Assembly: GCA_964016885.1 (NCBI GenBank)
Contig: OZ024740.1
Coordinates: 21,080,001-21,144,000 of the forward strand
DNA: 64,000 bases
Source of the DNA: Eledone cirrhosa
Lineage: Eukaryota
Direction: 5' to 3'
In this document: piece by piece, positions 2,509 to 63,972 of the stretch
How the letters are laid out: each line of letters starts with the position of its first letter
Numbering within the stretch: the first letter of the stretch is position 1
Program-made: the position numbers and the translations under genes
Notes under the pieces: model-generated
What the model saw: the letters and a program-made list of their open reading frames with translations, nothing else
What the model was told of the DNA's origin: nothing
Databases searched by the model: none

Positions 2509-2595
2509 TGTCTAATGTAGTCCAAGATATACTGTCTGATAATATCACATTGAAAGAAGGAATGGTACATTGTCTAATGTAGTCCAAGATATACT
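2509..2595 (-). repeat. 87-bp inverted satellite segment #1 (TGTCT junction)
   Basis: TGTCTAATGTAGTCCAAGATATACTGTCTGATAATATCACATTGAAAGAAGGAATGGTACATTGTCTAATGTAGTCCAAGATATACT is the exact reverse complement of monomer positions 38-62 plus 1-62. Confidence 0.98.
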
Positions 2596-4802
2596 ATGTA
2601 CCATTCCTTCTTTCAATGTCATATTATCAGACAGTATATCTTCGACTACATTAGACAATGTACCATTCCTTCTTTCAATGTGATATTATCAAACAGTATA
2701 TCTTGGACTACATTAGACAATGTACCATTCCTTCTTTCAAGGTGATATTATCAGACAGTATATCTTGGACTACATTAGACAATGTACCATTCCTTCTTTC
2801 AATGTTATATTATCAGACAGTATATCTTCAACTACATTAGACAATATACCATTCCTTCTTTCAATGTGATATTATCAGACAGTATATCTTGGACAACATT
2901 AGACAATGTACCATTCTTTCTTTCAAGGTGATATTATCAGACATTATATCTTGGACTACAATAGACAATGTACCATTCCTACTTTCAATGTGATATTATC
3001 AGACAGTATATCTTTGACTACATTAGACAATGCACCATTCCTTCTTTCAATGTGATATTATCAGACAGTATATCATGGACTACATTATAAAATGTACCAT
3101 TCCTTCTTTCAATGTTATATTATCAGACTGTATATCTTGGACTACATTAGACAATATACCATTCCTTCTTTCAATGTGATATTATCAGACAGTATATCTT
3201 GGACTACATTAGACAATGTACCATTCCTTCTTTCAATGTGATATTATCAGACAGTATATCTTGGACTACATTATACAATGTACCATTCCTTCTTTCAATG
3301 TTATATTATCAGACTGTATATCTTGGACTACATTAGACAATATACCATTCCTTCTTTCAATGTGATATTATCAGACAGTATATCTTGGACTACATTAGAC
3401 AATGTATCGTTCCTTCTTTCAATGTGATATTATCAGACAGTATACCTTGCACTACATTAGACAATGTACCATTCTTTCTTTCAAGGTGATATTATCAGAC
3501 AGTATATCTTGGACTACATTAGACAATGTACCATTCCTTCTTTCAATGTGATATTATCAGACAGTATAACTTTGACTACATTAGACAAAGTACCGTTCCT
3601 TCTTTCAATGTGATATTATCAGACAGTATATCTTGGACTACATTAGACAATGTACCATTCCTTCTTTCAAGGTGATATTATCAGACAGTATATCTTGGAC
3701 TACATTAGACGATGTACCGTTCCTTCTTTCAATGTGATATTATCAGACAGTATATCTTGGACAACATTAGACAATGTACCATTCTTTCTTTCAAGGTGAT
3801 ATTATCATACAGTATATCTTGGACTACAATAGACAATGTACCATTCCTACTTTCAATGTGATATTATCAGACAGTATATCTTGGACTACATTAGAGATTG
3901 TACCATTCCTTCTTTCCATGTGATATTATCAGACAGTATATCATGGACTACATTATACAATGTACCATTCCTTCTTTCAATGTTATAATATCAGACTGTA
4001 TATCTTGGACTACAGTAGACAATATACCATTCCTTCTTTCAATGTGATATTATCAGACAGTATATCTTGGACTACTTTAGACAATGTACCATTCCTTCTT
4101 TCAATGTGATATTATCAGACAGTATATCTTGGACTACATTAGACAATGTACCATTCCTTCTTTCAATGGGATATTATCAGACAGTATATCTTGGACTACA
4201 TTAAACAATGTACCATTCCTTCTTTCAAGGTGATATTATCAGACAGTATATCTTGGACTACATTAGACAATGTACCATTCCTTCTTTCAACGTCATATTA
4301 TCAGACAGTATATCTTCGACTACGTTAGACAATGTACCATTCCTTCTTTCAATGTGATATTATCAGACAGTATATCATGGACTACATTATACAATGTACC
4401 ATTCCTTCTTTCAATGTTATATTATCAGACTGTATATCTTGGACTACATTAGACAATATACCATTCCTTCTTTCAATGTGATATTATCAGACAGTATATC
4501 TTGGACTACATTAGACAATGTACCATTCCTTCTTTCAATGTGATATTATCAGACAGTATATTTTGGACTACATTAGACAATGTACCATTCCTTCTTTCAA
4601 TGGGATATTATCAGACTGTATATCTTGGACTACATTAGACAATGTACTATTCCTTCTTTCAAGGTGATATTATCAGACAGTATATCTTGGACTACATTAG
4701 GCAATGTACCATTCCTTCTTTCAATGTGATATTATCAGACAGTGTATCTTGGACTACATTAGACAATGTACCATTCCTTCTGTCAATGTGATATTATCAG
4801 AC

Positions 4803-4889
4803 TGTCTAATGTAGTCCAAGATATACTGTCTGATAATATCACATTGAAAGAAGGAATGGTACATTGTCTAATGTAGTCCAAGATATACT
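4803..4889 (-). repeat. 87-bp inverted segment #2 (TGTCT)
   Basis: Same reverse-complement segment and breakpoints as #1. Confidence 0.97.
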
Positions 4890-7096
4890 ATGTACCATTC
4901 CTTCTTTCAATGTCATATTATCAGACAGTATATCTTCGACTACATTAGACAATGTACCATTCCTTCTTTCAATGTGATATTATCAAACAGTATATCTTGG
5001 ACTACATTAGACAATGTACCATTCCTTCTTTCAAGGTGATATTATCAGACAGTATATCTTGGACTACATTAGACAATGTACCATTCCTTCTTTCAATGTT
5101 ATATTATCAGACAGTATATCTTCAACTACATTAGACAATATACCATTCCTTCTTTCAATGTGATATTATCAGACAGTATATCTTGGACAACATTAGACAA
5201 TGTACCATTCTTTCTTTCAAGGTGATATTATCAGACATTATATCTTGGACTACAATAGACAATGTACCATTCCTACTTTCAATGTGATATTATCAGACAG
5301 TATATCTTTGACTACATTAGACAATGCACCATTCCTTCTTTCAATGTGATATTATCAGACAGTATATCATGGACTACATTATAAAATGTACCATTCCTTC
5401 TTTCAATGTTATATTATCAGACTGTATATCTTGGACTACATTAGACAATATACCATTCCTTCTTTCAATGTGATATTATCAGACAGTATATCTTGGACTA
5501 CATTAGACAATGTACCATTCCTTCTTTCAATGTGATATTATCAGACAGTATATCTTGGACTACATTATACAATGTACCATTCCTTCTTTCAATGTTATAT
5601 TATCAGACTGTATATCTTGGACTACATTAGACAATATACCATTCCTTCTTTCAATGTGATATTATCAGACAGTATATCTTGGACTACATTAGACAATGTA
5701 TCGTTCCTTCTTTCAATGTGATATTATCAGACAGTATACCTTGCACTACATTAGACAATGTACCATTCTTTCTTTCAAGGTGATATTATCAGACAGTATA
5801 TCTTGGACTACATTAGACAATGTACCATTCCTTCTTTCAATGTGATATTATCAGACAGTATAACTTTGACTACATTAGACAAAGTACCGTTCCTTCTTTC
5901 AATGTGATATTATCAGACAGTATATCTTGGACTACATTAGACAATGTACCATTCCTTCTTTCAAGGTGATATTATCAGACAGTATATCTTGGACTACATT
6001 AGACGATGTACCGTTCCTTCTTTCAATGTGATATTATCAGACAGTATATCTTGGACAACATTAGACAATGTACCATTCTTTCTTTCAAGGTGATATTATC
6101 ATACAGTATATCTTGGACTACAATAGACAATGTACCATTCCTACTTTCAATGTGATATTATCAGACAGTATATCTTGGACTACATTAGAGATTGTACCAT
6201 TCCTTCTTTCCATGTGATATTATCAGACAGTATATCATGGACTACATTATACAATGTACCATTCCTTCTTTCAATGTTATAATATCAGACTGTATATCTT
6301 GGACTACAGTAGACAATATACCATCCCTTCTTTCAATGTGATATTATCAGACAGTATATCTTGGACTACATTAGACAATGTACCATTCCTTCTTTCAATG
6401 TGATATTATCAGACAGTATATCTTGGACTACATTAGACAATGTACCATTCCTTCTTTCAATGGGATATTATCAGACAGTATATCTTGGACTACATTAAAC
6501 AATGTACCATTCCTTCTTTCAAGGTGATATTATCAGACAGTATATCTTGGACTACATTAGACAATGTACCATTCCTTCTTTCAACGTCATATTATCAGAC
6601 AGTATATCTTCGACTACGTTAGACAATGTACCATTCCTTCTTTCAATGTGATATTATCAGACAGTATATCATGGACTACATTATACAATGTACCATTCCT
6701 TCTTTCAATGTTATATTATCAGACTGTATATCTTGGACTACATTAGACAATATACCATTCCTTCTTTCAATGTGATATTATCAGACAGTATATCTTGGAC
6801 TACATTAGACAATGTACCATTCCTTCTTTCAATGTGATATTATCAGACAGTATATTTTGGACTACATTAGACAATGTACCATTCCTTCTTTCAATGGGAT
6901 ATTATCAGACTGTATATCTTGGACTACATTAGACAATGTACTATTCCTTCTTTCAAGGTGATATTATCAGACAGTATATCTTGGACTACATTAGGCAATG
7001 TACCATTCCTTCTTTCAATGTGATATTATCAGACAGTGTATCTTGGACTACATTAGACAATGTACCATTCCTTCTGTCAATGTGATATTATCAGAC

Positions 7097-7183
7097 TGTC
7101 TAATGTAGTCCAAGATATACTGTCTGATAATATCACATTGAAAGAAGGAATGGTACATTGTCTAATGTAGTCCAAGATATACT
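7097..7183 (-). repeat. 87-bp inverted segment #3 (TGTCT)
   Basis: Same as #1. Confidence 0.97.
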
Positions 7184-9700
7184 ATGTACCATTCCTTCTT
7201 TCAATGTCATATTATCAGACAGTATATCTTCGACTACATTAGACAATGTACCATTCCTTCTTTCAATGTGATATTATCAAACAGTATATCTTGGACTACA
7301 TTAGACAATGTATCGTTCCTTCTTTCAATGTGATATTATCAGACAGTATACCTTGGACTACATTAGACAATGTACCATTCCTTCTTTCAATGTGATATTA
7401 TCAGACAGTATATCTTGGACTGCATTAGACAATGTACCTTTCCTTCGTTCAAGGTGATATTATCAGACAGTATATCTTGGACTACACTAGACAATGTACC
7501 ATTCCTTCTTTCAAGGTGATATTATCAAACAGTATATCTTGGACTAAATTAGACAATGTACCATTCCTTCTTTCAATGTCATATTATCAAACAGTATATC
7601 TTGGACTTCATTAGACAATATACCATTCCTTCTTTCAATGTGATATTATCAGACAGTATATCTCGGACTACCTTAGACAATGTACCATTCCTACTTTCAA
7701 TGTGATATTATCAGACAGTATATCTTGGACTACATTAGACAATGTACCATTCCTTCTTTCAAGGTGATATTATCAGACAGTATATCTTGGACTACATTAG
7801 ACAATGTATCGTTCCTTCTTTTAATGTGATATTATCAGACAGTATATCTTGGACTACATTAGACAATGTACCATTCCTTCTTTCAATGTGATATTATCAG
7901 ACAGTATATCTTGGACTACATTAGACAATGTACCATTCCTTCTTTCAATGGGATATTAGCAGACAGTATATCTTGGACTACATTAGACAATATACCATTC
8001 CTTCTTTCAATATGATATTATCAGACAGTATATCTTGGACTACATTAGACAATGTACCATTCCTTCTTTCAATCGGATATTATCAGACAGTATATCTTGG
8101 ACTACATTAGACAATATACCATTCCTTCTTTCAATGTGATATTATCAGACAATATATCTTGGACTACATTAGACAATGTACCATTTCTTCCTTCAATGTT
8201 ATATTATCAGACAGTATATCTTGGACTACATTAGACAATGTTCCATTCCTTCTTTCAATGTGATATTATCAGACAGTATATCTTGGACTACATTAGACAA
8301 TGTACCATTCCTTCTTTCAAGGTGATATTATCAGACAGTATATCTTGGACTACATTAGACAATGTACCATTCCTTCTTTCAATGTTATATTATCAGACAG
8401 TATATCTTCGACTACATTAGACAATATACCATTCCTTCTTTCAATGTGATATTATCAGACAGTATATCTTGGACAACATTAGACAATGTACCATTCTTTC
8501 TTTCAAGGTGATATTATCAGACAGTATATCTTGGACTACAATAGACAATGTACCATTCCTACTTTCAATGTGATATTATCAGACAGTACATCTTTGACTA
8601 CATTAGACAATGTACCATTCCTTCTTTCAATGTGATATTATCAGACAGTATATCATGGACTACATTATAAAATGTACCATTCCTTCTTTCAATGTTATAT
8701 TATCAGACTGTATATCTTGGACTACATTAGACAATATACCATTCCTTCTTTCAATTTGATATTATCAGACAGTATATCTTGGACTACATTAGACAATGTA
8801 TCGTTCCTTCTTTCAATGTGATATTATCAGACAGTATACCTTGGACTACATTAGACAATGTACCATTCTTTCTTTCAAGGTGATATTATCAGACAGTATA
8901 TCTTGGACTACATTAGACAATGTACCATTCCTTCTTTCAATGTGATATTATCGGACAGTATAACTTTGACTACATTAGACAAAGTACCATTCCTTCTTTC
9001 AATGTGATATTATCAGACAGTATATCTTGGACTACATTAGACAATGTACCATTCCTTCTTTCAATGGGATATTATCAGACAGTATATCTTGGACTACATT
9101 AAACAATGTACCATTCCTTCTTTCAAGGTGATATTATCAGACAGTATATCTTGGACTACATTGGACAATGTACCATTCCTTCTTTCAACGTCATATTATC
9201 AGACAGTATATCTTCGACTACGTTAGACAATGTACCATTCCTTCTTTCAATGTGATATTATCAGACAGTATATCATGGACTACATTATACAATGTACCAT
9301 TCCTTCTTTCAATGTTATATTATCAGACTGTATATCTTGGACTACATTAGACAATATACCATTCCTTCTTTCAATGTGATATTATCAGACAGTATATCTT
9401 GGACTACATTAGACAATGTACCATTCCTTCTTTCAATGTGATATTATCAGACAGTATATTTTGGACTACATTAGACAATGTACCATTCCTTCTTTCAATG
9501 GGATATTATCAGACAGTATATCTTGGACTACATTAGACAATGTACTATTCCTTCTTTCAAGGTGATATTATCAGACAGTATATCTTGGACTACATTAGAC
9601 AATGTACCATTCCTTCTTTCAATGTGATATTATCAGACAGTGTATCTTGGACTACGTTAGACAATGTACCATTCCTTCTGTCAATGTGATATTATCAGAC

Positions 9701-9787
9701 TGTCTAATGTAGTCCACGATATACTGTCTGATAATATCACATTGATAGAAGGAATGGTACATTGTCTAATGTAGTCCAAGATATACT
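9701..9787 (-). repeat. 87-bp inverted segment #4 (TGTCT; internal variants CCACGAT, ATTGATAG)
   Basis: Same breakpoints, two internal substitutions. Confidence 0.97.
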
Positions 9788-11374
9788 ATGTACCATTCTT
9801 TCTTTCAATGTCATATTATCAGACAGTATATCTTCGACTACATTAGACAATGTACCATTCCTTCTTTCAATGTGATATTATCAAACAGTATATCTTGGAC
9901 TACATTAGACAATGTATCGTTCCTTCTTTCAATGTGATATTATCAGACAGTATACCTTGGACTACATTAGACACTGTACCATTCCTTCTTTCAATGTGAT
10001 ATTATCAGACAGTATATCTTGGACTGCATTAGACAATGTACCTTTCCTTCGTTCAAGGTGATATTATCAGACAGTATATCTTGGACTACACTAGACAATG
10101 TACCATTCCTTCTTTCAAGGTGATATTATCAAACAGTATATCTTGGACTAAATTAGACAATGTTCCATTCCTTCTTTCAATGTCATATTATCAGACAGTA
10201 TATCTTGGACTTCATTAGACAATATACCATTCCTTCTTTCAATGTGATATTATCAGACAGTATATCTTGGACTACCTTAGACAATGTACCATTCCTTCTT
10301 TCATGGTGATATTATCAGACAGTATATCTTGGACTACATTAGACAATGTACCATTCCTTCTTTCAAGGTGATATTATCAGACAGTATATCTTGGACTACA
10401 TTAGACAATGTATCGTTCCTTCTTTTAATGTGATATTATCAGACAGTATATCTTGGACTACATTAGACAATGTACCATTCCTTCTTTCAATGTGATATTA
10501 TCAGACAGTATATCTTGGACTACATTAGACAATGTACCATTCCTTCTTTCAATGGGATATTAGCAGACAGTATATCTTGGACTACATTAGACAATATACC
10601 ATTCCTTCTTTCAATATGATATTATCAGACAGTATATCTTGGACTACATTAGACAATGTACCATTCCTTCTTTCAATCGGATATTATCAGACAGTATATC
10701 TTGGACTACATTAGACAATATACCATTCCTTCTTTCAATGTGATATTATCAGACAATATATCTTGGACTACATTAGACAATGTACCATTTCTTCTTTCAA
10801 TGGGATATTAGCAGACAGTATATCTTGGACTACATTAGACAATATACCATTCCTTCTTTCAATATGATATTATCAGACAGTATATCTTGGACTACATTAG
10901 ACAATGTACCATTCCTTCTTTCAATCGGATATTATCAGACAGTATATCTTGGACTACATTAGACAATATACCATTCCTTCTTTCAATGTGATATTATCAG
11001 ACAATATATCTTGGACTACATTAGACAATGTACCATTTCTTCTTTCAATGTTATATTATCAGACAGTATATCTTGGACTACATTAGACAATGTTCCATTC
11101 CTTCTTTCAATGTGATATTATCAGACAGTATATATTGGACTACATTAGACAATGTACCATTCCTTCTTTCAATGGGATATTATCAGACAGTATATCTTGG
11201 ACTACATTAGACAATGTACCATTCCTTCTTTCAAGGTGATATTATCAGACAGTATATCTTGGACTACATTAGACAATGTACCATTCCTTCTTTCAATGTG
11301 ATATTATCAGACAGTGTATCTTGGACTCCATTAGACAATGTACCATTCCTTCTATCAATGTGATATTATCAGAC

Positions 11375-11461
11375 TGTCTAATGTAGTCCAAGATATACTG
11401 TCTGATAATATCACATTGAAAGAAGGAATGGTACATTGTCTAATGTAGTCCAAGTTATACT
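11375..11461 (-). repeat. 87-bp inverted segment #5 (TGTCT; CAAGTTATAC variant)
   Basis: Same breakpoints. Confidence 0.97.
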
Positions 11462-12862
11462 ATGTACCATTCCTTCTTTCAATGTCATATTATCAGACAG
11501 TATATCTTCGACTACATTAGACAATGTACCATTCCTTCTTTCAATGTGATATTATCAAACAGTATATCTTGGACTACATTAGACAATGTATCGTTCCTTC
11601 TTTCAATGTGATATTATCAGACAGTATATCTTGGACTACATTAGACAATGTACCATTTCTTCTTTCAATGTGATATTATCAGACAGTATATCTTGGACTG
11701 CATTAGACAATGTACCATTCCTTCCTTCAAGGTGATATTATCAGACAGTATATCTTGAACTACACTAGACAATGAACCATTCCTTCTTTCAAGGTGATAT
11801 TATCAGACAGTATATCTTGGACTAAATTAGACAATGTACCATTCCTTCTTTCAATGTCATATTATCAGACAGTATATCTTGGACTTCATTAGACAATATA
11901 CCATTCCTTCTTTCAATGTGATATTATCAGACAGTATATCTTGGACTACATTAGACAATGTACCATTCCTTCTTTCAAGGTGATATTATCAGACAGTATA
12001 TCTTGGACTACATTAGACAATGTACCATTCCTTCTTTCAAGGTGATATTATCAGACAGTATATCTTGGACTACATTAGACAATGTACCATTCCTTATTTC
12101 AAGGTGATATTATCAGACAGTATATCTTGGACTACATTAGACAATGTACCATTCCTTCTTTCAATGTTATATTATCAGAGAGTATATCTTCGACTACATT
12201 AGACAATATACCATTCCTTCTTTCAATGTGATATTATCAGACAGCATATCTTGGACAACATTCGACAATGTACCATTCTTTCTTTCAAGGTGATATTATC
12301 AGACAGTATATCTTGGACTACAATAGACAATGTACCATTCCTACTTTCAATGTGATATTAACAGACAGTATATCTTGGACTACATTAGACAATGTACCAT
12401 TCCTTCTTTCAATGTGATATTATCAGACAGTATATCATGGACTACATTATACAATGTACCATTCCTTCTTTCAATGTTATATTATCAGACTGTATATCTT
12501 GGACTACATTAGACAATATACCATTCCTTCTTTCAATGTGATATTATCAGACAGTATATCTTGGACTACATTAGACAATGTACCATTCCTTCTTTCAATG
12601 TGATATTATCAGACAGTATATCTTGGAATACATTAGACAATGTACCATTCCTTCTTTCAATGTGATATTATCAGACAGTATATCTTGGACTACATTAGAC
12701 AATGTACCATTCCTTCTTTCAATGGGATATTATCAGACAGTATATCTTGGAATACATTAGACAATGTACCATTTCTTCTTTCAAGTTGATATTATCAGAC
12801 AGTATATCTTGGACTACATTAGACAATGTACCATTCCTTCTGTCAATGTGATATTATCAGAC

Positions 12863-12949
12863 TGCCTAATGTAGTCCAAGATATACTGTCTGATAATATC
12901 ACATTGAAAGAAGGAATGGTACATTGTCTAATGTAGTCCAAGATATACT
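12863..12949 (-). repeat. 87-bp inverted segment #6 (TGCCT)
   Basis: Same breakpoints, junction allele TGCCT. Confidence 0.97.
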
Positions 12950-14846
12950 ATGTACCATTCCTTCTTTCAATGTCATATTATCAGACAGTATATCTTCGAC
13001 TACAATAGACAATGTACCATTCCTACTTTCAATGTGATATTAACAGACAGTATATCTTGGACTACATTAGACAATGTACCATTCCTTCTTTCAATGTGAT
13101 ATTATCAGACAGTATATCATGGACTACATTATACAATGTACCATTCCTTCTTTCAATGTTATATTATCAGACTGTATATCTTGGACTACATTAGACAATA
13201 TACCATTCCTTCTTTCAATGTGATATTATCAGACAGTATATCTTGGACTACATTAGACAATGTACCATTCCTTCTTTCAATGTGATATTATCAGACAGTA
13301 TATCTTGGACTACATTATACAATGTACCATTCCTTCTTTCAATGTTATATTATCAGACTGTATATCTTGGACTACATTAGACAATATACCATTCCTTCTT
13401 TCAATGTGATATTATCAGACAGTATATCTTGGACTACATTAGACAATGTATCGTTCCTTCTTTCAATGTGATATTATCAGACAGTATACCTTGCACTACA
13501 TTAGACAATGTACCATTCTTTCTTTCAAGGTGATATTATCAGACAGTATATCTTGGACTACATTAGACAATGTACCATTCCTTCTTTCAATGTGATATTA
13601 TCAGACAGTATAACTTTGACTACATTAGACAAAGTACCGTTCCTTCTTTCAATGTGATATTATCAGACAGTATATCTTGGACTACATTAGACAATGTACC
13701 ATTCCTTCTTTCAAGGTGATATTATCAGACAGTATATCTTGGACTACATTAGACGATGTACCGTTCCTTCTTTCAATGTGATATTATCAGACAGTATATC
13801 TTGGACAACATTAGACAATGTACCATTCTTTCTTTCAAGGTGATATTATCATACAGTATATCTTGGACTACAATAGACAATGTACCATTCCTACTTTCAA
13901 TGTGATATTATCAGACAGTATATCTTGGACTACATTAGAGATTGTACCATTCCTTCTTTCCATGTGATATTATCAGACAGTATATCATGGACTACATTAT
14001 ACAATGTACCATTCCTTCTTTCAATGTTATAATATCAGACTGTATATCTTGGACTACAGTAGACAATATACCATTCCTTCTTTCAATGTGATATTATCAG
14101 ACAGTATATCTTGGACTACATTAGACAATGTACCATTCCTTCTTTCAATGTGATATTATCAGACAGTATATCTTGGACTACATTAGACAATGTACCATTC
14201 CTTCTTTCAATGGGATATTATCAGACAGTATATCTTGGACTACATTAAACAATGTACCATTCCTTCTTTCAAGGTGATATTATCAGACAGTATATCTTGG
14301 ACTACATTAGACAATGTACCATTCCTTCTTTCAACGTCATATTATCAGACAGTATATCTTCGACTACGTTAGACAATGTACCATTCCTTCTTTCAATGTG
14401 ATATTATCAGACAGTATATCATGGACTACATTATACAATGTACCATTCCTTCTTTCAATGTTATATTATCAGACTGTATATCTTGGACTACATTAGACAA
14501 TATACCATTCCTTCTTTCAATGTGATATTATCAGACAGTATATCTTGGACTACATTAGACAATGTACCATTCCTTCTTTCAATGTGATATTATCAGACAG
14601 TATATTTTGGACTACATTAGACAATGTACCATTCCTTCTTTCAATGGGATATTATCAGACTGTATATCTTGGACTACATTAGACAATGTACTATTCCTTC
14701 TTTCAAGGTGATATTATCAGACAGTATATCTTGGACTACATTAGGCAATGTACCATTCCTTCTTTCAATGTGATATTATCAGACAGTGTATCTTGGACTA
14801 CATTAGACAATGTACCATTCCTTCTGTCAATGTGATATTATCAGAC

Positions 14847-14933
14847 TGTCTAATGTAGTCCAAGATATACTGTCTGATAATATCACATTGAAAGAAGGAA
14901 TGGTACATTGTCTAATGTAGTCCAAGATATACT
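14847..14933 (-). repeat. 87-bp inverted segment #7 (TGTCT)
   Basis: Same as #1. Confidence 0.97.
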
Positions 14934-17140: not shown

Positions 17141-17227
17141 TGTCTAATGTAGTCCAAGATATACTGTCTGATAATATCACATTGAAAGAAGGAATGGTAC
17201 ATTGTCTAATGTAGTCCAAGATATACT
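17141..17227 (-). repeat. 87-bp inverted segment #8 (TGTCT)
   Basis: Same as #1. Confidence 0.97.
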
Positions 17228-19744: not shown

Positions 19745-19831
19745 TGTCTAATGTAGTCCACGATATACTGTCTGATAATATCACATTGATAGAAGGAATG
19801 GTACATTGTCTAATGTAGTCCAAGATATACT
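19745..19831 (-). repeat. 87-bp inverted segment #9 (TGTCT; CCACGAT, ATTGATAG)
   Basis: Duplicate of #4 at +10,044. Confidence 0.97.
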
Positions 19832-46463: not shown

Positions 46464-46550
46464 TGCGTAATGTAGTCCAAGATATACTGTCTGATAATAT
46501 CACATTGAAAGAAGGAATGGTACATTGTCTAATGTAGTCCAAGATATACA
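46464..46550 (-). repeat. 87-bp inverted segment #24 (TGCGT; right end GATATACA)
   Basis: Same left breakpoint, altered right junction. Confidence 0.96.
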
Positions 46551-48137: not shown

Positions 48138-48224
48138 TGCCTAATGTAGTCCAAGATATACTGTCTGATAATATCACATTGAAAGAAGGAATGGTACATT
48201 GTCTAATGTAGTCCAAGATATACA
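48138..48224 (-). repeat. 87-bp inverted segment #25 (TGCCT; right end GATATACA)
   Basis: As #23. Confidence 0.96.
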
Positions 48225-50493: not shown

Positions 50494-50580
50494 TGCGTAA
50501 TGTAGTCCAAGATATACTGTCTGATAATATCACATTGAAAGAAGGAATGGTACATTGTCTAATGTAGTCCAAGATATACT
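50494..50580 (-). repeat. 87-bp inverted segment #26 (TGCGT)
   Basis: Same breakpoints. Confidence 0.97.
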
Positions 50581-51733
50581 ATGTACCATTCCTTCTTTCA
50601 ATGTCATATTATCAGACAGTATATCTTCGACTACAATAGACAATGTACCATTCCTACTTTCAATGTGATATTAACAGACAGTATATCTTGGACTACATTA
50701 GACAATGTACCATTCCTTCCTTCAATGTGATATTATCAGACAGTATATCATGGACTACATTAGACAATGTACCATTCCTTCTTTCAATGTTATATTATCA
50801 GACAGTATATCTTCGACTACATTAGACAATATACCATTCCTTCTTTCAATGTGATATTATCAGACAGTATATCTTGGACAACATTAGACAATGTACCATT
50901 CTTTCTTTCAAGGTGATATTATCAGACAGTATATCTTGGACTACAATAGACAATGTACCATTCCTACTTTCAATGTGATATTATCAGACAGTATATCTTG
51001 GACTACATTAGACAATGTACCATTCCTTCTTTCAATGTGATATTATAAGACAGTATATCATGGACTACATTATACAATGTACCATTCCTTCTTTCAATGT
51101 TATATTATCAGACTGTATATCTTGGACTACATTAGACAATATACCATTCCTTCTTTCAATGTGATATTATCAGACAGTATATCTTGGACTACATTAGACA
51201 ATGTAGCATTCCTTCTTTCAATGTGATATTATCAGACAGTATATCTTGGACTACATTATACAATGTACCATTCCTTCTTTCAATGTTATATTATCAGACA
51301 GTATATCTTGGACTACATTAGTCAATATACCATTCCTTCTTTCAATGTGATATTATCAGACAGTATATCTTGGACTACATTAGACAATGTATCGTTCCTT
51401 CTTTCAATGTCATATTATCAGACAGTATATCTTCGACTACATTAGACAATGTACCATTCCTTCTTTCAATGTGATATTATCAGACGGTATATCTTGGACT
51501 GCATTAGACAATGTACCATTCCTTCGTTTAAGGTGATATTATCAGACAGTATATCTTGGACTACACTAGACAATGTACCATTCCTTCTTTCAAGGTGATA
51601 TTATCAGACAGTATATCTTGGACTACATTAGACAATGTACCATTCCTTCTTTCAATGTGATATTATCAGACAGTGTATCTTGCACTACATTAGACAATGT
51701 ACCATTCCTTCTGTCAATGTGATATTATCAGAC

Positions 51734-51820
51734 TGCCTAATGTAGTCCAAGATATACTGTCTGATAATATCACATTGAAAGAAGGAATGGTACATTGTCT
51801 AATGTAGTCCAAGATATACA
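51734..51820 (-). repeat. 87-bp inverted segment #27 (TGCCT; right end GATATACA)
   Basis: As #23 and #25. Confidence 0.96.
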
Positions 51821-54089
51821 ATGTACCATTCCTTCTTTCAATGTTATATTATCAGACTGTATATCTTGGACTACATTAGACAATATACCATTCCTTCTTT
51901 CAATGTGATATTATCAGACAGTATATCTTGGACTACATTAGACAATGTACCATTCCTTCTTTCAATGTGATATTATCAGACAGTATATCTTGGACTGCAT
52001 TAGACAATGTACCATTCCTTCGTTCAAGGTGATATTATCAGACAGTATATCTTGGACTACACTAGACAATGTACCATTCCTTCTTTCAAGGTGATATTAT
52101 CAGACAGTATATCTTGGACTAAATTAGACAATGTACCATTCCTTCTTTCAATGTCATATTATCAGACAGTATATCTTGGACTTCATTAGACAATATACCA
52201 TTCCTTCTTTCAATGTGATATTATCAGACAGTATATCTTGGACTACATTAGACAATGTACCATTCCTTCTTTCAAGGTGATATTATCAGACAGTATATCT
52301 TGGACTAGATTAGACAATGTACCATTCCTTCTTTCAAGGTGATATTATCAGACAGTATATCTTGGACTACATTAGACAATGTACCATTCCTTCTTTCAAG
52401 GTGATATTATCAGACAGTATATCTTGGACTACATTAGACAATGTACCATTCCTTCTTTCAATGTTATATTATCAGACAGTATATCTTCGACTACATTAGA
52501 CAATATACCATTCCTTCTTTCAATGTGATATTATCAGACAGTATATCTTGGACAACATTAGACAATGTACCATTCTTTCTTTCAAGGTGATATTATCAGA
52601 CAGTATATCTTGGACTACAATAGATAATGTACCATTCCTACTTTCAATGTGATATTATCAGACAGTATATCTTTGACTACATTAGACAATGTACCATAAC
52701 TTCTTTCAATGTGATATTATCAGACAGTATATCATGGACTACATTATACAATGTACCATTCCTTCTTTCTATGTTATATTATCAGACTGTATATCTTGGA
52801 CTACATTAGACAATATACCATTCCTTCTTTCAATGTGATATTATCAGACAGTATATCTTGGACTACATTAGACAATGTAGCATTCCTTCTTTCAATGTGA
52901 TATTATCAGACAGTATATCTTGGACTACATTATACAATGTACCATTCCTTCTTTCAATGTTATATTATCAGACTGTATATCTTGGACTACATTAGACAAT
53001 ATACCATTCCTTCTTTCAATGTGATATTACCAGACAGTATATCTTGGACTAAATTAGACAATGTATCGTTCCTTCTTTCAATGTGATATTATCAGACAGT
53101 ATACCTTGGACAACATTAGACAATATACCATTCCTTCTTTCAATGTGATATTATCAGACAGTATATATTGGACTACATTAGACAATGTACCATTCCTTCT
53201 TTCAAGGTTATATTATCAGACAGTATATCTTGGACTACATTAGACAATGTACCATTCCTTCTATCAAAGTGATATTATCAGACAGTATATCTTGGACTAC
53301 ATTAGACAATGTACCATTCCTTCTTTCAAGGTGATATTATCAGACAGTATATCTTGGACTACATTAGACAATGTACCATTCCTTCTTTCAATGTTATATT
53401 ATCAGACAGTATATCTTCGACTACATTAGACAATATACCATTCCTTCTTTCAATGTGATATTATCAGACAGTATATCTTGGACAACATTCGACAATGTAC
53501 CATTCTTTCTTTCAAGGTGATATTATCAGACAGTATATCTTGGACTACAATAGACAATGTACCATTCCTACTTTCAATGTGATATTAACAGACAGTATAT
53601 CTTGGACTACATTAGACAATGTACCATTCCTTCTTTCAATGTGATATTATCAGACAGTATATCTTGGACTACATTAGACAATGTACCATTCCTTCTTTCA
53701 ATGTGATATTATCAGACAGTATATCATGGACTACATTATACAATGTACCATTCCTTCTTTCAATGTTATATTATCAGACTGTATATCTTGGACTACATTA
53801 GACAATATACCATTCCTTCTTTCAATGTGATATTATCAGACAGTATATCTTGGACTACATTAGACAATGTACCATTCCTTCTTTGAATGTGATATTATCA
53901 GACAGTATATCTTGGACTACATTAGACAATGTTCCATTCCTTCTTTCAATGGGATATTATCAGACAGTATATCTTGGACTACATTAGACAATGTACCATT
54001 TCTTCTTTCAAGTTGATATTATCAGACAGTATATCTTGGACTACATTAGACAATGTACCATTCCTTCTTTCAATGTGATATTATCAGAC

Positions 54090-54176
54090 TGCGTAATGTA
54101 GTCCAAGATATACTGTCTGATAATATCACATTGAAAGAAGGAATGGTACATTGTCTAATGTAGTCCAAGATATACT
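54090..54176 (-). repeat. 87-bp inverted segment #28 (TGCGT)
   Basis: Same breakpoints. Confidence 0.97.
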
Positions 54177-54771
54177 ATGTACCATTCCTTCTTTCAATGT
54201 CATATTATCAGACAGTATATCTTCGACTACAATAGACAATGTACCATTCCTACTTTCAATGTGATATTAACAGACAGTATATCTTGGACTACATTAGACA
54301 ATGTACCATTCCTTCCTTCAATGTGATATTATCAGACAGTATATCATGGACTACATTATACAATGTACCATTCCTTCTTTCAATGTTATATTATCAGACT
54401 GTATATCTTGGACTACATTAGACAATATACCATTCCTTCTTTCAATGTGATATTATCAGACAGTATATCTTGGACTACATTAGACAATGTACCATTCCTT
54501 CTTTCAATGTGATATTATCAGACGGTATATCTTGGACTGCATTAGACAATGTACCATTCCTTCGTTCAAGGTGATATTATCAGACAGTATATCTTGGACT
54601 ACACTAGACAATGTACCATTCCTTCTTTCAAGGTGATATTATCAGACAGTATATCTTGGACTACATTAGACAATGTACCATTCCTTCTTTCAATGTGATA
54701 TTATCAGACAGTGTATCTTGCACTACATTAGACAATGTACCATTCCTTCTGTCAATGTGATATTATCAGAC

Positions 54772-54858
54772 TGCCTAATGTAGTCCAAGATATACTGTCT
54801 GATAATATCACATTGAAAGAAGGAATGGTACATTGTCTAATGTAGTCCAAGATATACT
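54772..54858 (-). repeat. 87-bp inverted segment #29 (TGCCT)
   Basis: Same breakpoints. Confidence 0.97.
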
Positions 54859-56196
54859 ATGTACCATTCCTTCTTTCAATGTCATATTATCAGACAGTAT
54901 ATCTTCGACTACAATAGACAATGTACCATTCCTACTTTCAATGTGATATTAACAGACATTATATCTTGGACTACATTAGACAATGTACCATTCCTTCTTT
55001 CAATGTGATATTATCAGACAGTATATCATGGACTACATTATACAATGTACCATTCCTTCTTTCAATGTTATATTATCAGACTGTATATCTTGGACTACAT
55101 TAGACAATATACCATTCATCTTTCAATGTGATATTATCAGACAGTATATATTGGACTACATTAGACAATGTACCATTCCTTCTTTCAATGTGATATTATC
55201 AGACAGTATATCTTGGACTGCATTAGACAATGTACCAGTCCTTCGTTCAAGGTGATATTATCAGACAGTATATCTTGGACTACACTAGACAATGTACCAT
55301 TCCTTCTTTCAAGGTGATATTATCAGACAGTATATCTTGGACTAAATTAGACAATGTACCATTCCTTCTTTCAATGTCATATTATCAGACAGTATATCTT
55401 GGACTTCATTAGACAATATACCATTCCTTCTTTCAATGTGATATTATCAGACAGTATATCTTGGACTACATTAGACAATGTACCATTCCTTCTTTCAAGG
55501 TGATATTATCAGACAGTATATCTTGGACTACATTAGACAATGTACCATTCCTTCTTTCAAGGTGATATTATCAGACAGTATATCTTGGACTACATTAGAC
55601 AATCTACCATTCCTTCTTTCAAGGTGATATTATCAGACAGTATATCTTGGACTACATTAGACAATGTACCATTCCTTCTTTCAATGTTATATTATCAGAC
55701 AGTATATCTTCGACTACATTAGACAATATACCATTCCTTCTTTCAATGTGATATTATCAGACAGTATATCTTGGACTACATTAGACAATGTACCATTCCC
55801 TCTTTCAATGTGATATTATCAGACAGTATATCATGGACTACATTATACAATGTACCATTCCTTCTTTCAATGTTATATTATCAGACTGTATATCTTGGAC
55901 TACATTAGACAATATACCATTCCTTCTTTCAATGTGATATTATCAGACAGTATATCTTGGACTACATTAGACAATGTACCATTCCTTCTTTCAATGTGAT
56001 ATTATCAGACAGTATATCTTGGACTACATTAGACAATGTTCCATTCCTTCTTTCAATGGGATATTATCAGACAGTATATCTTGGACTACATTAGACAATG
56101 TACCATTTCTTCTTTCAAGTTGATATTATCAGACAGTATATCTTGGACTACATTAGACAATGTACCATTCCTTCTTTCAATGTGATATTATCAGAC

Positions 56197-56283
56197 TGCG
56201 TAGTGTAGTCCAAGATATACTGTCTGATAATATCACATTGAAAGAAGGAATGGTACATTGTCTAATGTAGTCCAAGATATACT
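56197..56283 (-). repeat. 87-bp inverted segment #30 (TGCGTAGTG variant)
   Basis: Same breakpoints, one extra substitution near the junction. Confidence 0.97.
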
Positions 56284-56816
56284 ATGTACCATTCCTTCTT
56301 TCAATGTCATATTATCAGACAGTATATCTTCGACTACAATAGACAATGTACCATTCCTACTTTCAATGTGATATTAACAGACAGTATATCTTGGACTACA
56401 TTAGACAATGTACCATTCCTTCCTTCAATGTGATATTATCAGACAGTATATCATGGACTACATTATACAATGTACCATTCCTTCTTTCAATGTTATATTA
56501 TCAGACTGTATATCTTGGACTACATTAGACAATATACCATTCCTTCTTTCAATGTGATATTATCAGACAGTATATCTTGGACTACATTAGACAATGTACC
56601 ATTCCTTCTTTCAATGTGATATTATCAGACGGTATATCTTGGACTGCATTAGACAATGTACCATTCCTTCGTTCAAGGTGATATTATCAGACAGTATATC
56701 TTGGACTACACTAGACAATGTACCATTCCTTCTTTCAATGTGATATTATCAGACAGTGTATCTTGCACTACATTAGACAATGTACCATTCCTTCTGTCAA
56801 TGTGATATTATCAGAC

Positions 56817-56903
56817 TGCCTAATGTAGTCCAAGATATACTGTCTGATAATATCACATTGAAAGAAGGAATGGTACATTGTCTAATGTAGTCCAAGATAT
56901 ACT
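56817..56903 (-). repeat. 87-bp inverted segment #31 (TGCCT)
   Basis: Same breakpoints. Confidence 0.97.
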
Positions 56904-59483
56904 ATGTACCATTCCTTCTTTCAATGTCATATTATCAGACAGTATATCTTCGACTACAATAGACAATGTACCATTCCTACTTTCAATGTGATATTAACAG
57001 ACATTATATCTTGGACTACATTAGACAATGTACCATTCCTTCTTTCAATGTGATATTATCAGACAGTATATCATGGACTACATTATACAATGTACCATTC
57101 CTTCTTTCAATGTTATATTATCAGACTGTATATCTTGGACTACATTAGACAATATACCATTCCTTCTTTCAATGTGATATTATCAGACAGTATATATTGG
57201 ACTACATTAGACAATGTACCATTCCTTCTTTCAATGTGATATTATCAGACAGTATATCTTGGACTGCATTAGACAATGTACCAGTCCTTCGTTCAAGGTG
57301 ATATTATCAGACAGTATATCTTGGACTACACTAGACAATGTACCATTCCTTCTTTCAAGGTGATATTATCAGACAGTATATCTTGGACTAAATTAGACAA
57401 TGTACCATTCCTTCTTTCAATGTCATATTATCAGACAGTATATCTTGGACTTCATTAGACAATATACCATTCCTTCCTTCAATGTGATATTATCAGACAG
57501 TATATCTTGGACTACATTAGACAATGTACCATTCCTTCTTTCAAGGTGATATTATCAGACAGTATATCTTGGACTACATTAGACAATGTACCATTCCTTC
57601 TTTCAAGGTGATATTATCAGACAGTATATCTTGGACTACATTAGACAATGTACCATTCCTTCTTTCAAGGTGATATTATCAGACAGTATATCTTGGACTA
57701 CATTAGACAATGTACCATTCCTTCTTTCAATGTTATATTATCAGACAGTATATCTTCGACTACATTAGACAATATACCATTCCTTCTTTCAATGTGATAT
57801 TATCAGACAGTATATCTTGGACAACATTAGACAATGTACCATTCTTTCTTTCAAGGTGATATTATCAGACAGTATATCTTGGACTACAATAGACAATGTA
57901 CCATTCCTACTTTCAATGTGATATTATCAGACAGTATATCTTTGACTACATTAGACAATGTACCATCACTTCTTTCAATGTGATATTATCAGACAGTATA
58001 TCATGGACTACATTATACAATGTACCATTCCTTCTTTCTATGTTATATTATCACACTGTATATCTTGGACTACATTAGACAATATACCATTCCTTCTTTC
58101 AATGTGATATTATCAGACAGTATATCTTGGACTACATTAGACAATGTAGCATTCCTTCTTTCAATGTGATATTATCAGACAGTATATCTTGGACTACATT
58201 AGACAATGTACCATTCCTTCTTTCAATGTTATATTATCAGACTGTATATCTTGGACTACATTAGACAATATACCATTCCTTCTTTCAATGTGATATTATC
58301 AGACAGTATATCTTGGACTACATTAGACAATGTATCGTTCCTTCTTTCAATGTGATATTATCAGACAGTATACCTTGGACAACATTAGACAATATACCAT
58401 TCCTTCTTTCAATGTGATATTATCAGACAGTATATATTGGACTACATTATACAATGTACCATTCCTTCTTTCAAGGTGATATTATCAGACAGTATATCTT
58501 GGACTACATTAGACAATGTACCATTCCTTCTATCAAAGTGATATTATCAGACAGTATATCTTGGACTACATTAGACAATGTACCATTCCTTCTTTCAAGG
58601 TGATATTATCAGACAGTATATCTTGGACTACATTAGACAATGTACCATTCCTTCTTTCAATGTGATATTACCAGACAGTATATCTTGGACTACATTAGAC
58701 AATGTATCGTTCCTTCTTTCAATGTGATATTATCAGACAGTATACCTTGGACAACATTAGACAATATACCATTCCTTCTTTCAATGTGATATTATCAGAC
58801 AGTATATATTGGACTACATTAGACAATGTACCATTCCTTCTTTCAAGGTGATATTATCAGACAGTATATCTTGGACTACATTAGACAATGTACCATTCCT
58901 TCTATCAAAGTGATATTATCAGACAGTATATCTTGTGACTACATTAGACAATGTACCATTCCTTCTTTCAATGTTATATTATCAGACAGTATATCTTCGA
59001 CTACATTAGACAATATACCATTCCTTCTTTCAATGTGATATTATCAGACAGTATATCTTGGACAACATTCGACAATGTACCATTCTTTCTTTCAAGGTGA
59101 TATTATCAGACAGTATATCTTGGACTACAATAGACAATGTACCATTCCTACTTTCAATGTGATATTAACAGACAGTATATCTTGGACTACATTAGACAAT
59201 GTACCATTCCTTCTTTCAATGTGATATTATCAGACAGTATATCTTGGACTACATTAGACAATGTACCATTCCTTCTTTCAATGTGATATTATCAGACAGT
59301 ATATCTTGGACTACATTAGACAATGTACCATTCCTTCTTTCAATGGGATATTATCAGACAGTATATCCTGGACTACATTAGACAATGTACCATTTCTTCT
59401 TTCAAGTTGATATTATCAGACAGTATATCTTGGACTACATTAGACAATGTACCATTCCTTCTTTCAATGTGATATTATCAGAC

Positions 59484-59570
59484 TGCGTAATGTAGTCCAA
59501 GATATACTGTCTGATAATATCACATTGAAAGAAGGAATGGTACATTGTCTAATGTAGTCCAAGATATACT
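59484..59570 (-). repeat. 87-bp inverted segment #32 (TGCGT)
   Basis: Same breakpoints. Confidence 0.97.
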
Positions 59571-60723
59571 ATGTACCATTCCTTCTTTCAATGTCATATT
59601 ATCAGACAGTATATCTTCGACTACAATAGACAATGTACCATTCCTACTTTCAATGTGATATTAACAGACAGTATATCTTGGACTACATTAGACAATGTAC
59701 CATTCCTTCTTTCAATGTGATATTATCAGACAGTATATCATGGACTACATTATACAATGTACCATTCCTTCTTTCAATGTTATATTATCAGACTGTATAT
59801 CTTGGACTACATTAGACAATATACCATTCCTTCTTTCAATGTGATATTATCAGACAGTATATCTTGGACTACATTAGACAATGTACCATTCCTTCTTTCA
59901 ATGTGATATTATCAGACAGTATACCTTGGACTGCATTAGACAATGTACCATTCCTTCGTTCAAGGTGATATTATCAGACAGTATATCTTGGACTACACTA
60001 GACAATGTACCATTCCTTCTTTCAAGGTGATATTATCAGACAGTATATCTTGGACTAAATTAGACAATGTACCAGTCCTTCTTTCAATGTCATATTATCA
60101 GACAGTATATCTTGGACTTCATTAGACAATATACCATTCCTTCTTTCAATGTGATATTATCAGACAGTATATCTTGGACTACATTAGACAATGTACCATT
60201 CCTTCTTTCAAGGTGATATTATCAGACAGTATATCTTGGACTACATTAGACAATGTACCATTCCTTCTTTCAATGTTATATTATCAGACAGTATATCTTG
60301 GACTACAATAGACAATGTACCATTCCTACTTTCAATGTGATATTATCAGACAGTATATCTTTGACTACATTAGACAATGTACCATTCCTTCTTTCAATGT
60401 GATATTATCAGACAGTATATCATGGACTACATTATACAATGTACCATTCCTTCTTTCAATGTTATATTATCAGACTGTATATCTTGGACTACATTAGACG
60501 ATATACCATTCCTTCTTTCAATGTGATATTATCAGACAGTATATCTTGGACTACATTAGACAATGTACCATTCCTTCTTTCAAGGTGATATTATCAGACA
60601 GTATATCTTGGACTACATTAGACAATGTACCATTTCTTCTTTCAAGTTGATATTATCAGACAGTATATCTTGGACTACATTAGACAATGTACCATTCCTT
60701 CTTTCAATGTGATATTATCAGAC

Positions 60724-60810
60724 TGCGTAATGTAGTCCAAGATATACTGTCTGATAATATCACATTGAAAGAAGGAATGGTACATTGTCTAATGTAGTCC
60801 AAGATATACT
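60724..60810 (-). repeat. 87-bp inverted segment #33 (TGCGT)
   Basis: Same breakpoints. Confidence 0.97.
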
Positions 60811-63800
60811 ATGTACCATTCCTTCTTTCAATGTCATATTATCAGACAGTATATCTTCGACTACAATAGACAATGTACCATTCCTACTTTCAATGTGATA
60901 TTAACAGACAGTATATCTTGGACTACATTAGACAATGTACCATTCCTTCTTTCAATGTGATATTATCAGACAGTATATCATGGACTACATTATACAATGT
61001 ACCATTCCTTCTTTCAATGTTATATTATCAGACTGTATATCTTGGACTACATTAGACAATATACCATTCCTTCTTTCAATGTGATATTATCAGACAGTAT
61101 ATCTTGGACTACATTAGACAATGTACCATTCCTTCTTTCAATGTGATATTATCAGACAGTATACCTTGGACTGCATTAGACAATGTACCATTCCTTCGTT
61201 CAAGGTGATATTATCAGACAGTATATCTTGGACTACACTAGACAATGTACCATTCCTTCTTTCAAGGTGATATTATCAGACAGTATATCTTGGACTAAAT
61301 TAGACAATGTACCAGTCCTTCTTTCAATGTCATATTATCAGACAGTATATCTTGGACTTCATTAGACAATATACCATTCCTTCTTTCAATGTGATATTAT
61401 CAGACAGTATATCTTGGACTACATTAGACAATGTACCATTCCTTCTCTCAAGGTGATATTATCAGACAGTATAACTTGGACTACATTAGACAATGTACCA
61501 TTCCTTCTTTCAATGTTATATTATCAGACAGTATATCTTGGACTACAATAGACAATGTACCATTCCTACTTTCAATGTGATATTATCAGACAGTATATCT
61601 TTGACTACATTAGACAATGTACCATTCCTTCTTTCAATGTGATATTATCAGACAGTATATCATGGACTACATTATACAATGTACCATTCCTTCTTTCAAT
61701 GTTATATTATCAGACTGTATATCTTGGACTACATTAGACAATATACCATTCCTTCTTTCAATGTGATATTATCAGACAGTATATCTTGGACTACATTAGA
61801 CAATGTACCATTCCTTCTTTCAAGGTGATATTATCAGACAGTATATCTTGGACTACATTAGACAATGTACCATTCCTTCTTTCAAGGTGATATTATCAGA
61901 CAGTATATCTTGGACTACATTAGACAATGTACTATTCCTTCTTTCAAGGTGATATTATCAGACAGTATATCTTGGACTACATTAGACAATGTACCATTCC
62001 TTCTTTCAATGTTATATTATCAGACAGTATATCTTCGACTACATTAGACAATATACCATTCCTTCTTTCAATGTGATATTATCAGACAGTATATCTTGGA
62101 CAACATTCGACAATGTACCATTCTTTCTTTCAAGGTGATATTATCAGACAGTATATCTTGGACTACAATAGACAATGTACCATTCCTACTTTCAATGTGA
62201 TATTAACAGACAGTATATCTTGGACAACATTAGACAATGTACCATTCCTTCTTTCAATGTGATATTATCAGACAGTATATCATGGACTACATTATACAAT
62301 GTACCATTCCTTCTTTCAATGTTATATTATCAGACTGTATATCTTGGACTACATTAGACAATATACCATTCCTTCTTTCAATGTGATATTATCAGACAGT
62401 ATATCTTGGACAACATTAGACAATGTACCATTCTTTCTTTCAAGGTGATATTATCAGACAGTATATCTTGGACTACAATAGACAATGTACCATTCCTACT
62501 TTCAATGTGATATTATCAGACAGTATATCTTTGACTACATTAGACAATGTACCATCACTTCTTTCAATGTGATATTATCAGACAGTATATCATGGACTAC
62601 ATTATACAATGTACCATTCCTTCTTTCTATGTTATATTATCAGACTGTATATCTTGGACTACATTAGACAATATACCATTCCTTCTTTCAATGTGATATT
62701 ATCAGACAGTATATCTTGGACTACATTAGACAATGTAGCATTCCTTCTTTCAATGTGATATTATCAGACAGTATATCTTGGACTACATTATACAATGTAC
62801 CATTCCTTCTTTCAATGTTATATTATCAGACTGTATATCTTGGACTACATTAGACAATATACCATTCCTTCTTTCAATGTGATATTATCAGACAGTATAT
62901 CTTGGACTACATTAGACAATGTATCGTTCCTTCTTTCAATGTGATATTATCAGACAGTATACCTTGGACAACATTAGACAATATACCATTCCTTCTTTCA
63001 ATGTGATATTATCAGACAGTATATATTGGACTACATTAGACAATGTACCATTCCTTCTTTCAAGGTGATATTATCAGACAGTATATCTTGGACTACATTA
63101 GACAATGTACCATTCCTTCTATCAAAGTGATATTATCAGACAGTATATCTTGGACTACATTAGACAATGTACCATTCCTTCTTTCAATGTTATATTATCA
63201 GACAGTATATCTTCGACTACATTAGACAATATACCATTCCTTCTTTCAATGTGATATTATCAGACAGTATATCTTGGACAACATTCGACAATGTACCATT
63301 CTTTCTTTCAAGGTGATATTATCAGACAGTATATCTTGGACTACAATAGACAATGTACCATTCCTACTTTCAATGTGATATTAACAGACAGTATATCTTG
63401 GACTACATTAGACAATGTACCATTGCTTCTTTCAATGTGATATTATCAGACAGTATATCTTGGACTACATTAGACAATGTACCATTCCTTCTTTCAATGT
63501 GATATTATCAGACAGTATATCATGGACTACATTATACAATGTACCATTCCTTCTTTCAATGTTATATTATCAGACTGTATATCTTGGACTACATTAGACA
63601 ATATACCATTCCTTCTTTCAATGTGATATTATCAGACAGTATATCTTGGACTACATTAGACAATGTACCATTCCTTCTTTCAATGTGATATTATCAGACA
63701 GTATATCTTGGACTACATTAGACAATGTACCATTCCTTCTTTCAATGGGATATTATCAGACAGTATATCTTGGACTACATTAGACAATGTACCATTTCTT

Positions 63801-63885
63801 CTTTCAAGTTGATATTATCAGACAGTATATCTTGGACTACATTAGACAATGTACCATTCCTTCTTTCAATGTGATATTATCAGAC

Positions 63886-63972
63886 TGCGTAATGTAGTCC
63901 AAGATATACTGTCTGATAATATCACATTGAAAGAAGGAATGGTACATTGTCTAATGTAGTCCAAGATATACT
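63886..63972 (-). repeat. 87-bp inverted segment #34 (TGCGT)
   Basis: Same breakpoints. Confidence 0.97.

Follow-up and report, generated by a model that had tools for sequence, protein, structure and literature searches.

An 87-bp inversion of likely single origin, probably carried passively to about 120 copies in a 62-bp satellite array of Eledone cirrhosa

The stretch of DNA considered here is a window of 64,000 nucleotides from Eledone cirrhosa (assembly GCA_964016885.1, contig OZ024740.1, C1:21080001-21144000), located on a 443-Mb contig of a 3.0-Gb assembly. The window (1..64000) consists throughout of a 62-bp satellite arranged head to tail on the + strand, with a guanine and cytosine content of 32%, into which short segments of opposite orientation are set. 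Tandem Repeats Finder describes positions 1-63885 as one array with 0% indels (insertions or deletions), in agreement with an earlier sequence-only reading that the 62-bp register is retained across these segments. The wider analysis covered 564 kb around the window, which proved to be part of a single array at C1:20932170-21285013 (353 kb, 5,692 monomers). A 25-base word of the monomer has 2,869 forward and 116 reverse exact matches in the genome (2,985), all inside this array. The satellite family is thus a single locus amounting to 0.012% of the assembly, and its confinement to one place means that it is not the repeat of all centromeres.

For a census of the reverse segments, the window was aligned on both strands to its commonest monomer. 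Variants are named by monomer position counted from ATGTACC, relative to the commonest base. The alignment returned 34 reverse segments and zero other strand switches, and so recovered every one of the 34 segments that had been claimed, at the same breakpoints. Each is 87 bases long and differs from the reverse complement of the monomer at 0-3 positions. The left junction lies at monomer position 37|62 (CAGAC|TG) in all 34, while the right junction reads TACT|ATG in 30 and TACA|ATG in the 4 that start at 44108, 46464, 48138 and 51734. The junction pattern has 118 matches genome-wide, all within this array, against 0 for a control pattern; together with the near-identity over 87 bases, this excludes a chance origin. 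The 33 spacings given earlier for the window (37, 37, 42, 27, 24, 32, 37, 42, 27, 24, 41, 39, 26, 27, 21, 16, 41, 31, 27, 23, 39, 11, 38, 27, 38, 20, 38, 11, 23, 10, 43, 20 and 51 monomers; mean 30) were reproduced exactly from the start coordinates.

All of the inverted segments lie on the - strand. The first (2509..2595) is of the founder type, identical to the commonest monomer. It is bounded by a left flank of monomer positions 1-37 (2472..2508, +), which carries the private marker T17G and would be the loop of a left hairpin, and by a right flank monomer (2596..2657, +) with the markers G25C and G48C, whose positions 1-37 would be the loop of a right hairpin. Segments 2 to 5 follow at 4803..4889, 7097..7183, 9701..9787 and 11375..11461, and segment 6 (12863..12949) belongs to a lineage marked by A60G. 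Segments 7 to 12 lie at 14847..14933, 17141..17227, 19745..19831, 21419..21505, 22907..22993 and 25449..25535, followed by segment 13 (27866..27952) of a G59C and A60G lineage. Segments 14 to 18 occupy 29478..29564, 31152..31238, 32454..32540, 33446..33532 and 35987..36073, and segments 19 to 22 occupy 37908..37994, 39582..39668, 41008..41094 and 43426..43512. The TACA right junction is found in segment 23 (44108..44194), which has a likely recombinant right flank, in segment 24 (46464..46550), where it stands on the G59C lineage and likely reflects a second exchange between two inverted copies, and in segments 25 (48138..48224) and 27 (51734..51820). Segment 26 lies between these two at 50494..50580. 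The remaining segments, 28 to 34, are at 54090..54176, 54772..54858, 56197..56283, 56817..56903, 59484..59570, 60724..60810 and 63886..63972.

Across the whole array there are 121 reverse segments, comprising 119 of the 87-bp type, one 25-bp copy and one unrelated 27-bp event. The 119 are made up of 113 plain copies, the 4 with TACA, 1 in which the left junction carries a point change and 1 in which a 14-base cluster stands at the right end. If these variants are allowed, both junction positions are kept in 119 of the 120 family copies. The longest reverse segments measure 87-89 bp, and none of the 121 is an inverted sub-array of several kb. The density of about one inversion per 30 monomers proposed earlier holds as the mean of the window but not for the array, in which 120 inversions among 5,692 monomers amount to 1 in 47 and spacings range from 9 to 142 monomers. 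The inversions span about three quarters of the array. Their density is steady along 200 kb, at 7-12 per 20 kb, with 0 copies in the initial 1,337 monomers (83 kb) and few in the last 60 kb. The left 83 kb (C1:20932170-21015000) also has more indels and 2.4-2.7 differences per monomer against about 2.0 elsewhere and, judged from sequence divergence, seems to be an older layer adjoining a younger expansion. The 14-base cluster (C1:21277844-21277857) leaves the length of its inverted copy unchanged and is possibly another short template switch.

The flanks and contents of the inverted copies bear on whether they arose once or many times. T17G, 20 bases to the left of the left junction, flanks 89 of the 119 full copies (T17A in 7 more) and occurs in 10 of 5,453 other monomers. 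G25C follows the inversion in 114 of 119 copies. The founder type accounts for 31 unchanged copies, present at either end of the inverted domain. Of 5,153 forward 87-mers, only 110 are equal to it. Ten common forward variants, including T22G (24%), G3A (17%) and G25T (13%), are carried by 0 of the 119 inverted whole monomers, which disfavors many independent flips, since these would have sampled such variants. The mean number of differences per 87 bp is 1.1 among inverted copies against 3.0 among forward stretches, so the flip would be younger than much of the diversity of the array.

All of the approximately 120 copies are therefore likely, on these sequence markers, to descend from one flip, and the earlier proposal of one ancestral event followed by amplification is borne out by the shared junctions and the private flank markers T17G and G25C. 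The identity of the junctions in 119 copies would also be expected if the same 87 bp had been flipped repeatedly, at a hot spot determined by the sequence or by a site-specific enzyme. The private flank markers that the copies have in common largely refute such recurrence. Furthermore, it would have to be reconciled with the rarity of the founder type among forward 87-mers, the common variants missing from inverted monomers and the 1,337 monomers of the left domain with 0 inversions. There is no inverted repeat at the junctions and no pair of inverted recombination sites as in a site-specific inverton, and the flank markers point to a single ancestry of the copies. Recurrent flipping is accordingly considered extremely improbable.

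Palindromic DNA can produce read artefacts, and fold-back chimeras in long reads could in principle have created the inversions during sequencing or assembly. The variant lineages among the inverted copies, however, are nested (A60G in 66, G59C in 19, T44A in 13) and clustered by place, which is not expected from read artefacts and makes such an origin unlikely. A 147-base stretch with both junctions was also compared with sequencing runs. In run X1, which may be the source sample, a short-read contig spans 2479-2538, including the left junction, with 0 differences, and depth is low past the right junction. The raw-read runs X8 and X10, from other samples in another study, show a depth of 1 from the left flank into the inversion (9 and 5 aligned reads, respectively), and from depth and partial-fit tables one raw read appears to cross the left junction in each. 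In run X9, 0 of 6 aligned reads extend to the left flank of the inversion. With the nested lineages, the X1 contig and the apparent crossing reads against it, an artefact has hardly any likelihood left.

The product of the flip is compatible with more than one mechanism. The segment is the reverse complement of nearby sequence, as in short-range template switching, and, measured against the commonest monomer, microhomology with the alternative path amounts to 0 shared bases at both junctions. The template switch suggested earlier is therefore possible but unproven, as the junctions lack microhomology and cut-and-flip repair gives an identical product. An inter-strand template switch is slightly favored, a double cut with blunt re-joining is a less likely but serious contender, and a fold-back mechanism is improbable. 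The last enters because the product may alternatively represent two fold-backs with loops of 37 nt each. The register is kept at the flip, although in a tandem array only modulo 62. An in-place inversion is preferred because a fold-back copy would preserve the 62-bp register in only about 1 of 62 cases, equal loops being a coincidence of that order. An origin at a TGT/ACA microhomology in an A38T monomer, with TACA as the ancestral junction, was considered and rejected, as the 4 TACA copies are confined to a single 8-kb patch and have a different right flank. A second inverted insert, at C1:21275586-21275612, measures 27 bp, shows microhomology of 3 and 2 bases, entailed a net loss of 18 bp and is present as a single copy within a patch of small deletions. 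As this event is unrelated, small inversions arise here more than once.

The first step in the history of the family would thus have been one accidental in-place flip of 87 bp, part-way through the history of the array. In a second step, the flip would have been copied, likely passively, inside multi-monomer blocks that were duplicated and deleted as the array grew. Thirty-five tandem duplications of 7-162 monomers were detected, and 20 of these hold 1-5 inversions. In the window, a 162-monomer block with 5 inversions is duplicated at 3092..23303 (+), the second copy starting from about 13136. The idea that the inversion had become part of a higher-order unit applies only loosely, as there is no fixed unit but a nest of local block duplications. 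The abundance of the inversion has parallels among point variants: in the inverted domain, 17 of 169 variant types have at least 119 copies, i.e., are at least as frequent as the inversion, and C12T, A53T, G48T and C54A are likewise almost missing from the left domain. The inverted segment shows 15 distinct substitutions over 87 bp against 12 over the 62-bp right flank, a flank-like rate of change and hence no conservation.

The third step would have been later collinear exchange, in which flanks were reshuffled, one copy was trimmed by one monomer to 25 bp and four right junctions were changed. The right flank of the TACA copies (G25T and A38T, then G3A) is the same block that in 263 of 271 instances comes next after a G59T monomer, and the G59T monomer has 5 bases in common with the end of the inversion. 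The TACA copies likely acquired their right flank from this block, as the matching variants suggest, and one of these copies has its left half from another lineage, which makes an exchange between two inverted copies likely. At C1:21238929-21238953, an inversion copy is cut to 25 bp (87 minus 62); its flanks are the same as those of two 87-bp neighbors, and one monomer length has been lost inside. No reciprocal 149-bp form was present among the 121 reverse segments. Collinear exchange would not have imported the commonest forward variants into inverted copies. Had all 15 changes come from forward monomers, 41% of them should belong to the nine commonest variants, and 0 do (P = 0.0004). Two further candidates were rejected: hairpin-templated copying between arms, as the arms share only A38T in TACA copies, and the inversion as a breakage hot spot, as flank decay is within the range of other markers.

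It is considered probable that the roughly 120 copies derive from one accidental in-place flip carried, likely passively, in duplicating blocks, with no function needed. The sequence-only reading held that selection and hitch-hiking could not be told apart. The array as a whole is informative on this point, since copy number and mutation rate look neutral, and only the spacing is somewhat more even than under neutral models.

The following observations weigh against passive descent from one in-place flip. Ten T17G monomers exist array-wide, none in a context matching an un-flipped progenitor, and as no such progenitor survives, the term "in place" rests on the register argument. Seven of the 15 changes are also found among forward monomers at a frequency of 1.4% or more (expected share 0.19, P = 0.014), which may reflect mutation hot spots common to both orientations or a degree of import. 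Support from the reads of other samples amounts to a single read in each of two runs, under the listing threshold. Array-wide gaps between inversions have a mean of 36.5 monomers, a coefficient of variation (CV) of 0.68 and a range of 9 to 142, with 0 of 119 under 9. A higher CV was found in all 30 point markers and all 23 marker pairs with a comparable abundance (0.72-3.0), and also in unlinked marker clusters that resemble products of a single origin (0.79-1.94). In a neutral duplication-deletion simulation (24 settings), the probability of a CV of at most 0.68 was 0.00-0.15 and that of a minimum gap of at least 9 was 0.00-0.06. The corresponding ranges were 0.00-0.02 and 0.00-0.06 when the simulation was conditioned on span (24 settings), and 0.04-0.16 and 0.00-0.05 when it started from a small founder unit (4 settings). 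With a statistic chosen post hoc, simple simulation models and one haplotype, the even spacing and the gap floor are suggestive of a departure from neutrality.

A possible, though doubtful, explanation retains the single origin but adds that the 87-bp non-homology limits pairing. Exchanges leaving inversions less than about 450-600 bp apart would then be rare, whole inversion-to-inversion units would be copied, and the inversion would set the phase of a higher-order structure without selection. The homology available at a breakpoint that creates a spacing of s monomers would not exceed s x 62 - 87 bp, so that the minimum of 9 leaves 471 bp, close to the 300-500 bp at which the available part of one source quotes human minimal efficient processing segments (PMC4195946). 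A homology threshold of 7-10 monomers in the simulation gave median minima of 8-11, against 3-5 without it, and a probability of 0.08-0.5 for a CV of at most 0.68. Moreover, in 114 of 119 copies A60G is in agreement with T56A, a flank marker located across the inversion at a distance of about 140 bp, and one exchange, in the TACA copies, ended exactly at the junction. The fit nevertheless combines a post hoc statistic with a free parameter in a single haplotype, and counting independent short-spacing events gives only P = 0.06-0.13. An ordinary point-variant block, C54A/G25C (n = 78), also has no gaps under 12, one copy lost 62 bp via just 25 bp of homology, and the flanks of the inversion decay within the range of other markers. 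It is proposed only tentatively that each copy is a pairing wall, that the array grows and shrinks only via exchanges with at least about 470 bp of homology between walls, and that homogenization takes place through the copying of collinear blocks instead of the conversion of short patches. If this were true, the 120 copies would be a natural ruler of the minimal homology for satellite turnover in a living animal.

Selection offers another account of the inversions, in which they are kept as a hairpin or cruciform about every 2 kb that organizes chromatin or binds a protein. Each copy is predicted to permit two mutually exclusive 87-bp stems with 37-nt loops. The predicted fold energy is -101 kcal/mol (z = -18), compared with -26 (z = -0.9) in an uninverted stretch. 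This energy is no evidence of use, as any inverted monomer folds so. In addition to the fold, the steady density of the copies over 200 kb would suit selection, and in the accessible text on Tribolium a structural role is proposed for conserved inversion sites (PMC13081366). Selection does not sit well, however, with a left domain devoid of inversions, the few copies in the last 60 kb and an array at a single locus. The inverted segment also changes as fast as its flank and there is no compensatory sharing between arms: the facing hairpin arms have no variants in common except A38T in 3 of the 4 TACA copies. Loops of 37 nt lower the likelihood of extrusion from duplex DNA. The hairpins are purely predicted, in segments that do not appear conserved above their flank, and maintenance by selection is regarded as very unlikely.

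Allowing up to 2 mismatches, a 22-base word of the monomer matches the genome 5,482 and 237 times on the two strands; 5,392 and 120 of these matches fall within the 564 kb, which leaves 207 in the rest of the genome over both strands. With a pattern designed to exclude the array, 26 dispersed loci were found, spread over 12 contigs, compared with 1 control match. When twelve dispersed loci were aligned with the array ends (C1:20932050-20932230 and 21284940-21285160), both ends were seen by eye to continue into the flanks of the dispersed repeat, which is old, short and unclassified, with about 200 or more copies. The satellite therefore likely grew from a 62-bp piece inside one copy of this repeat, whose flanking parts presumably resemble octopus-type repeats. 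A reading of the dispersed repeat as a poly(A)-tailed retrocopy was rejected: the exact A-tail pattern matched the array only (11 matches), and the A-run is internal, with copies continuing past it. In runs X4-X7, from four other organisms, a 92-base tandem contig at least 99% like the monomer was found in each (depth 6-24). No inversion junction was present in these contigs, which drop rare forms; for this reason, and because cross-contamination and a shared short array are both possible, they date nothing. Two of these organisms have many diverged dispersed pieces. No RNA dataset was present among the matches listed.

Other repeats lie around the array. The 353-kb array itself has no retroelement insertion, and both flanks carry long open frames like those of long interspersed nuclear elements (endonuclease or reverse transcriptase type, judged by eye), e.g., at C1:20880290-20883745, 20920484-20923516 and 21390842-21394231. 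A 436-amino acid open frame near the array (L044:5532-6839, +) has a weak feature-based resemblance to DUF6589-type clusters (0.94-0.95, of low recognition value). Unrelated arrays nearby have units of 32 bp (C1:21290830-21313945, 23 kb), 45 bp (C1:21334684-21336960, 2.3 kb) and 29 bp (C1:21405738-21424000 and beyond, at least 18 kb). Reverse words numbered 0 in the 32-bp arrays (23 kb and 1.3 kb), the 45-bp array (2.3 kb) and 18 kb of the 29-bp array.

Related arrangements have been reported elsewhere, here compared from those parts of the sources that were available. Conserved inversion segments are described in TfSat01 of Tribolium freemani and in TmSat1 and TmSat2 of T. madens (10.1101/2024.12.02.626372; PMC13081366). 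As in Eledone cirrhosa, a few junctions composed solely of truncated monomers, with no foreign sequence, have been amplified to many near-identical, hairpin-capable copies. In Tribolium, however, the sub-array switched at each junction is several kb long, and the repeats occur on many chromosomes, likely at the centromeres, whereas here two junctions lie 87 bp apart, the strand is regained in register and one locus is involved. The four-point model of short-range template switching, with inter-strand switches inferred, includes an in-place type (1-3-2-4) in which, as here, a short segment is replaced by its own reverse complement (10.1101/038380). Those switches are single events in unique DNA, while here one event is amplified 120-fold, and the product does not reveal the mechanism. 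Human-chimpanzee microinversions are similarly clean, in-place inversions with no base gained or lost, but they measure 17-33 nt, and 59 of 59 have flanking inverted repeats of at least 3 nt (PMC8755829). The present segment has 87 nt and 0 shared bases at both junctions, and as it lacks such a flanking repeat it is not a classical microinversion.

Inversions can also be fixed into a tandem array by amplification as part of every unit. Units with inverted subunits include the 1061-bp unit of T. brevicornis with 470-bp arms, TmSat2 of T. madens and a 385-bp unit of Trichogramma (PMC13081366). In those satellites the period is fixed, whereas here 1 monomer in 36 is inverted at a variable spacing of 9-142. 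By analogy, a scattered inversion may be an earlier stage of a path to fixed inverted units. The partially inverted repeat (PIR) of chicken is reportedly another such unit, and it is elsewhere named as a satellite (PMC12470241). Strand switches inside head-to-tail arrays are also known from the major and minor satellites of mouse, where direction switches affect 0.85% and 1.92% of arrays in reads (PMC10880262). Those switches are rare, and no amplified flip-and-return is described in the available part of that source, in contrast to the amplified form here. The Ogre-derived satellites of Lathyrus expanded from a short stretch of a dispersed element (PMC7004042), as this array likely did; in this case a single site expanded, within a dispersed repeat that is old, short and unclassified. 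The literature, of which coverage was incomplete, yielded no account of this satellite or of a monomer-scale flip-and-return in amplified form; the Tribolium supplements may list short inverted sub-arrays. By comparison with these systems, the finding is explained by known processes, as a small-scale variant of the amplified inversion junctions of Tribolium.

It is an old question whether satellites are homogenized by unequal exchange or break-induced block copying, on the one hand, or by short gene conversion, on the other. Point variants trace this process poorly, as the same change can appear again or be lost by reversion. An inversion of single origin can neither arise anew nor undergo conversion by a forward monomer, and the 120 copies therefore give a clean genealogy of a 270-kb expansion. 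The inversion is thus a useful built-in tracer of repeat growth and not a new type of element. Apart from this tracer value, the spacing floor is the one lead worth more data, and if it holds in more haplotypes it would be a measure of the homology needed for array turnover. Conserved, hairpin-forming satellite junctions can reach high copy number and yet behave as neutral markers, which calls for caution in functional readings of such junctions elsewhere.

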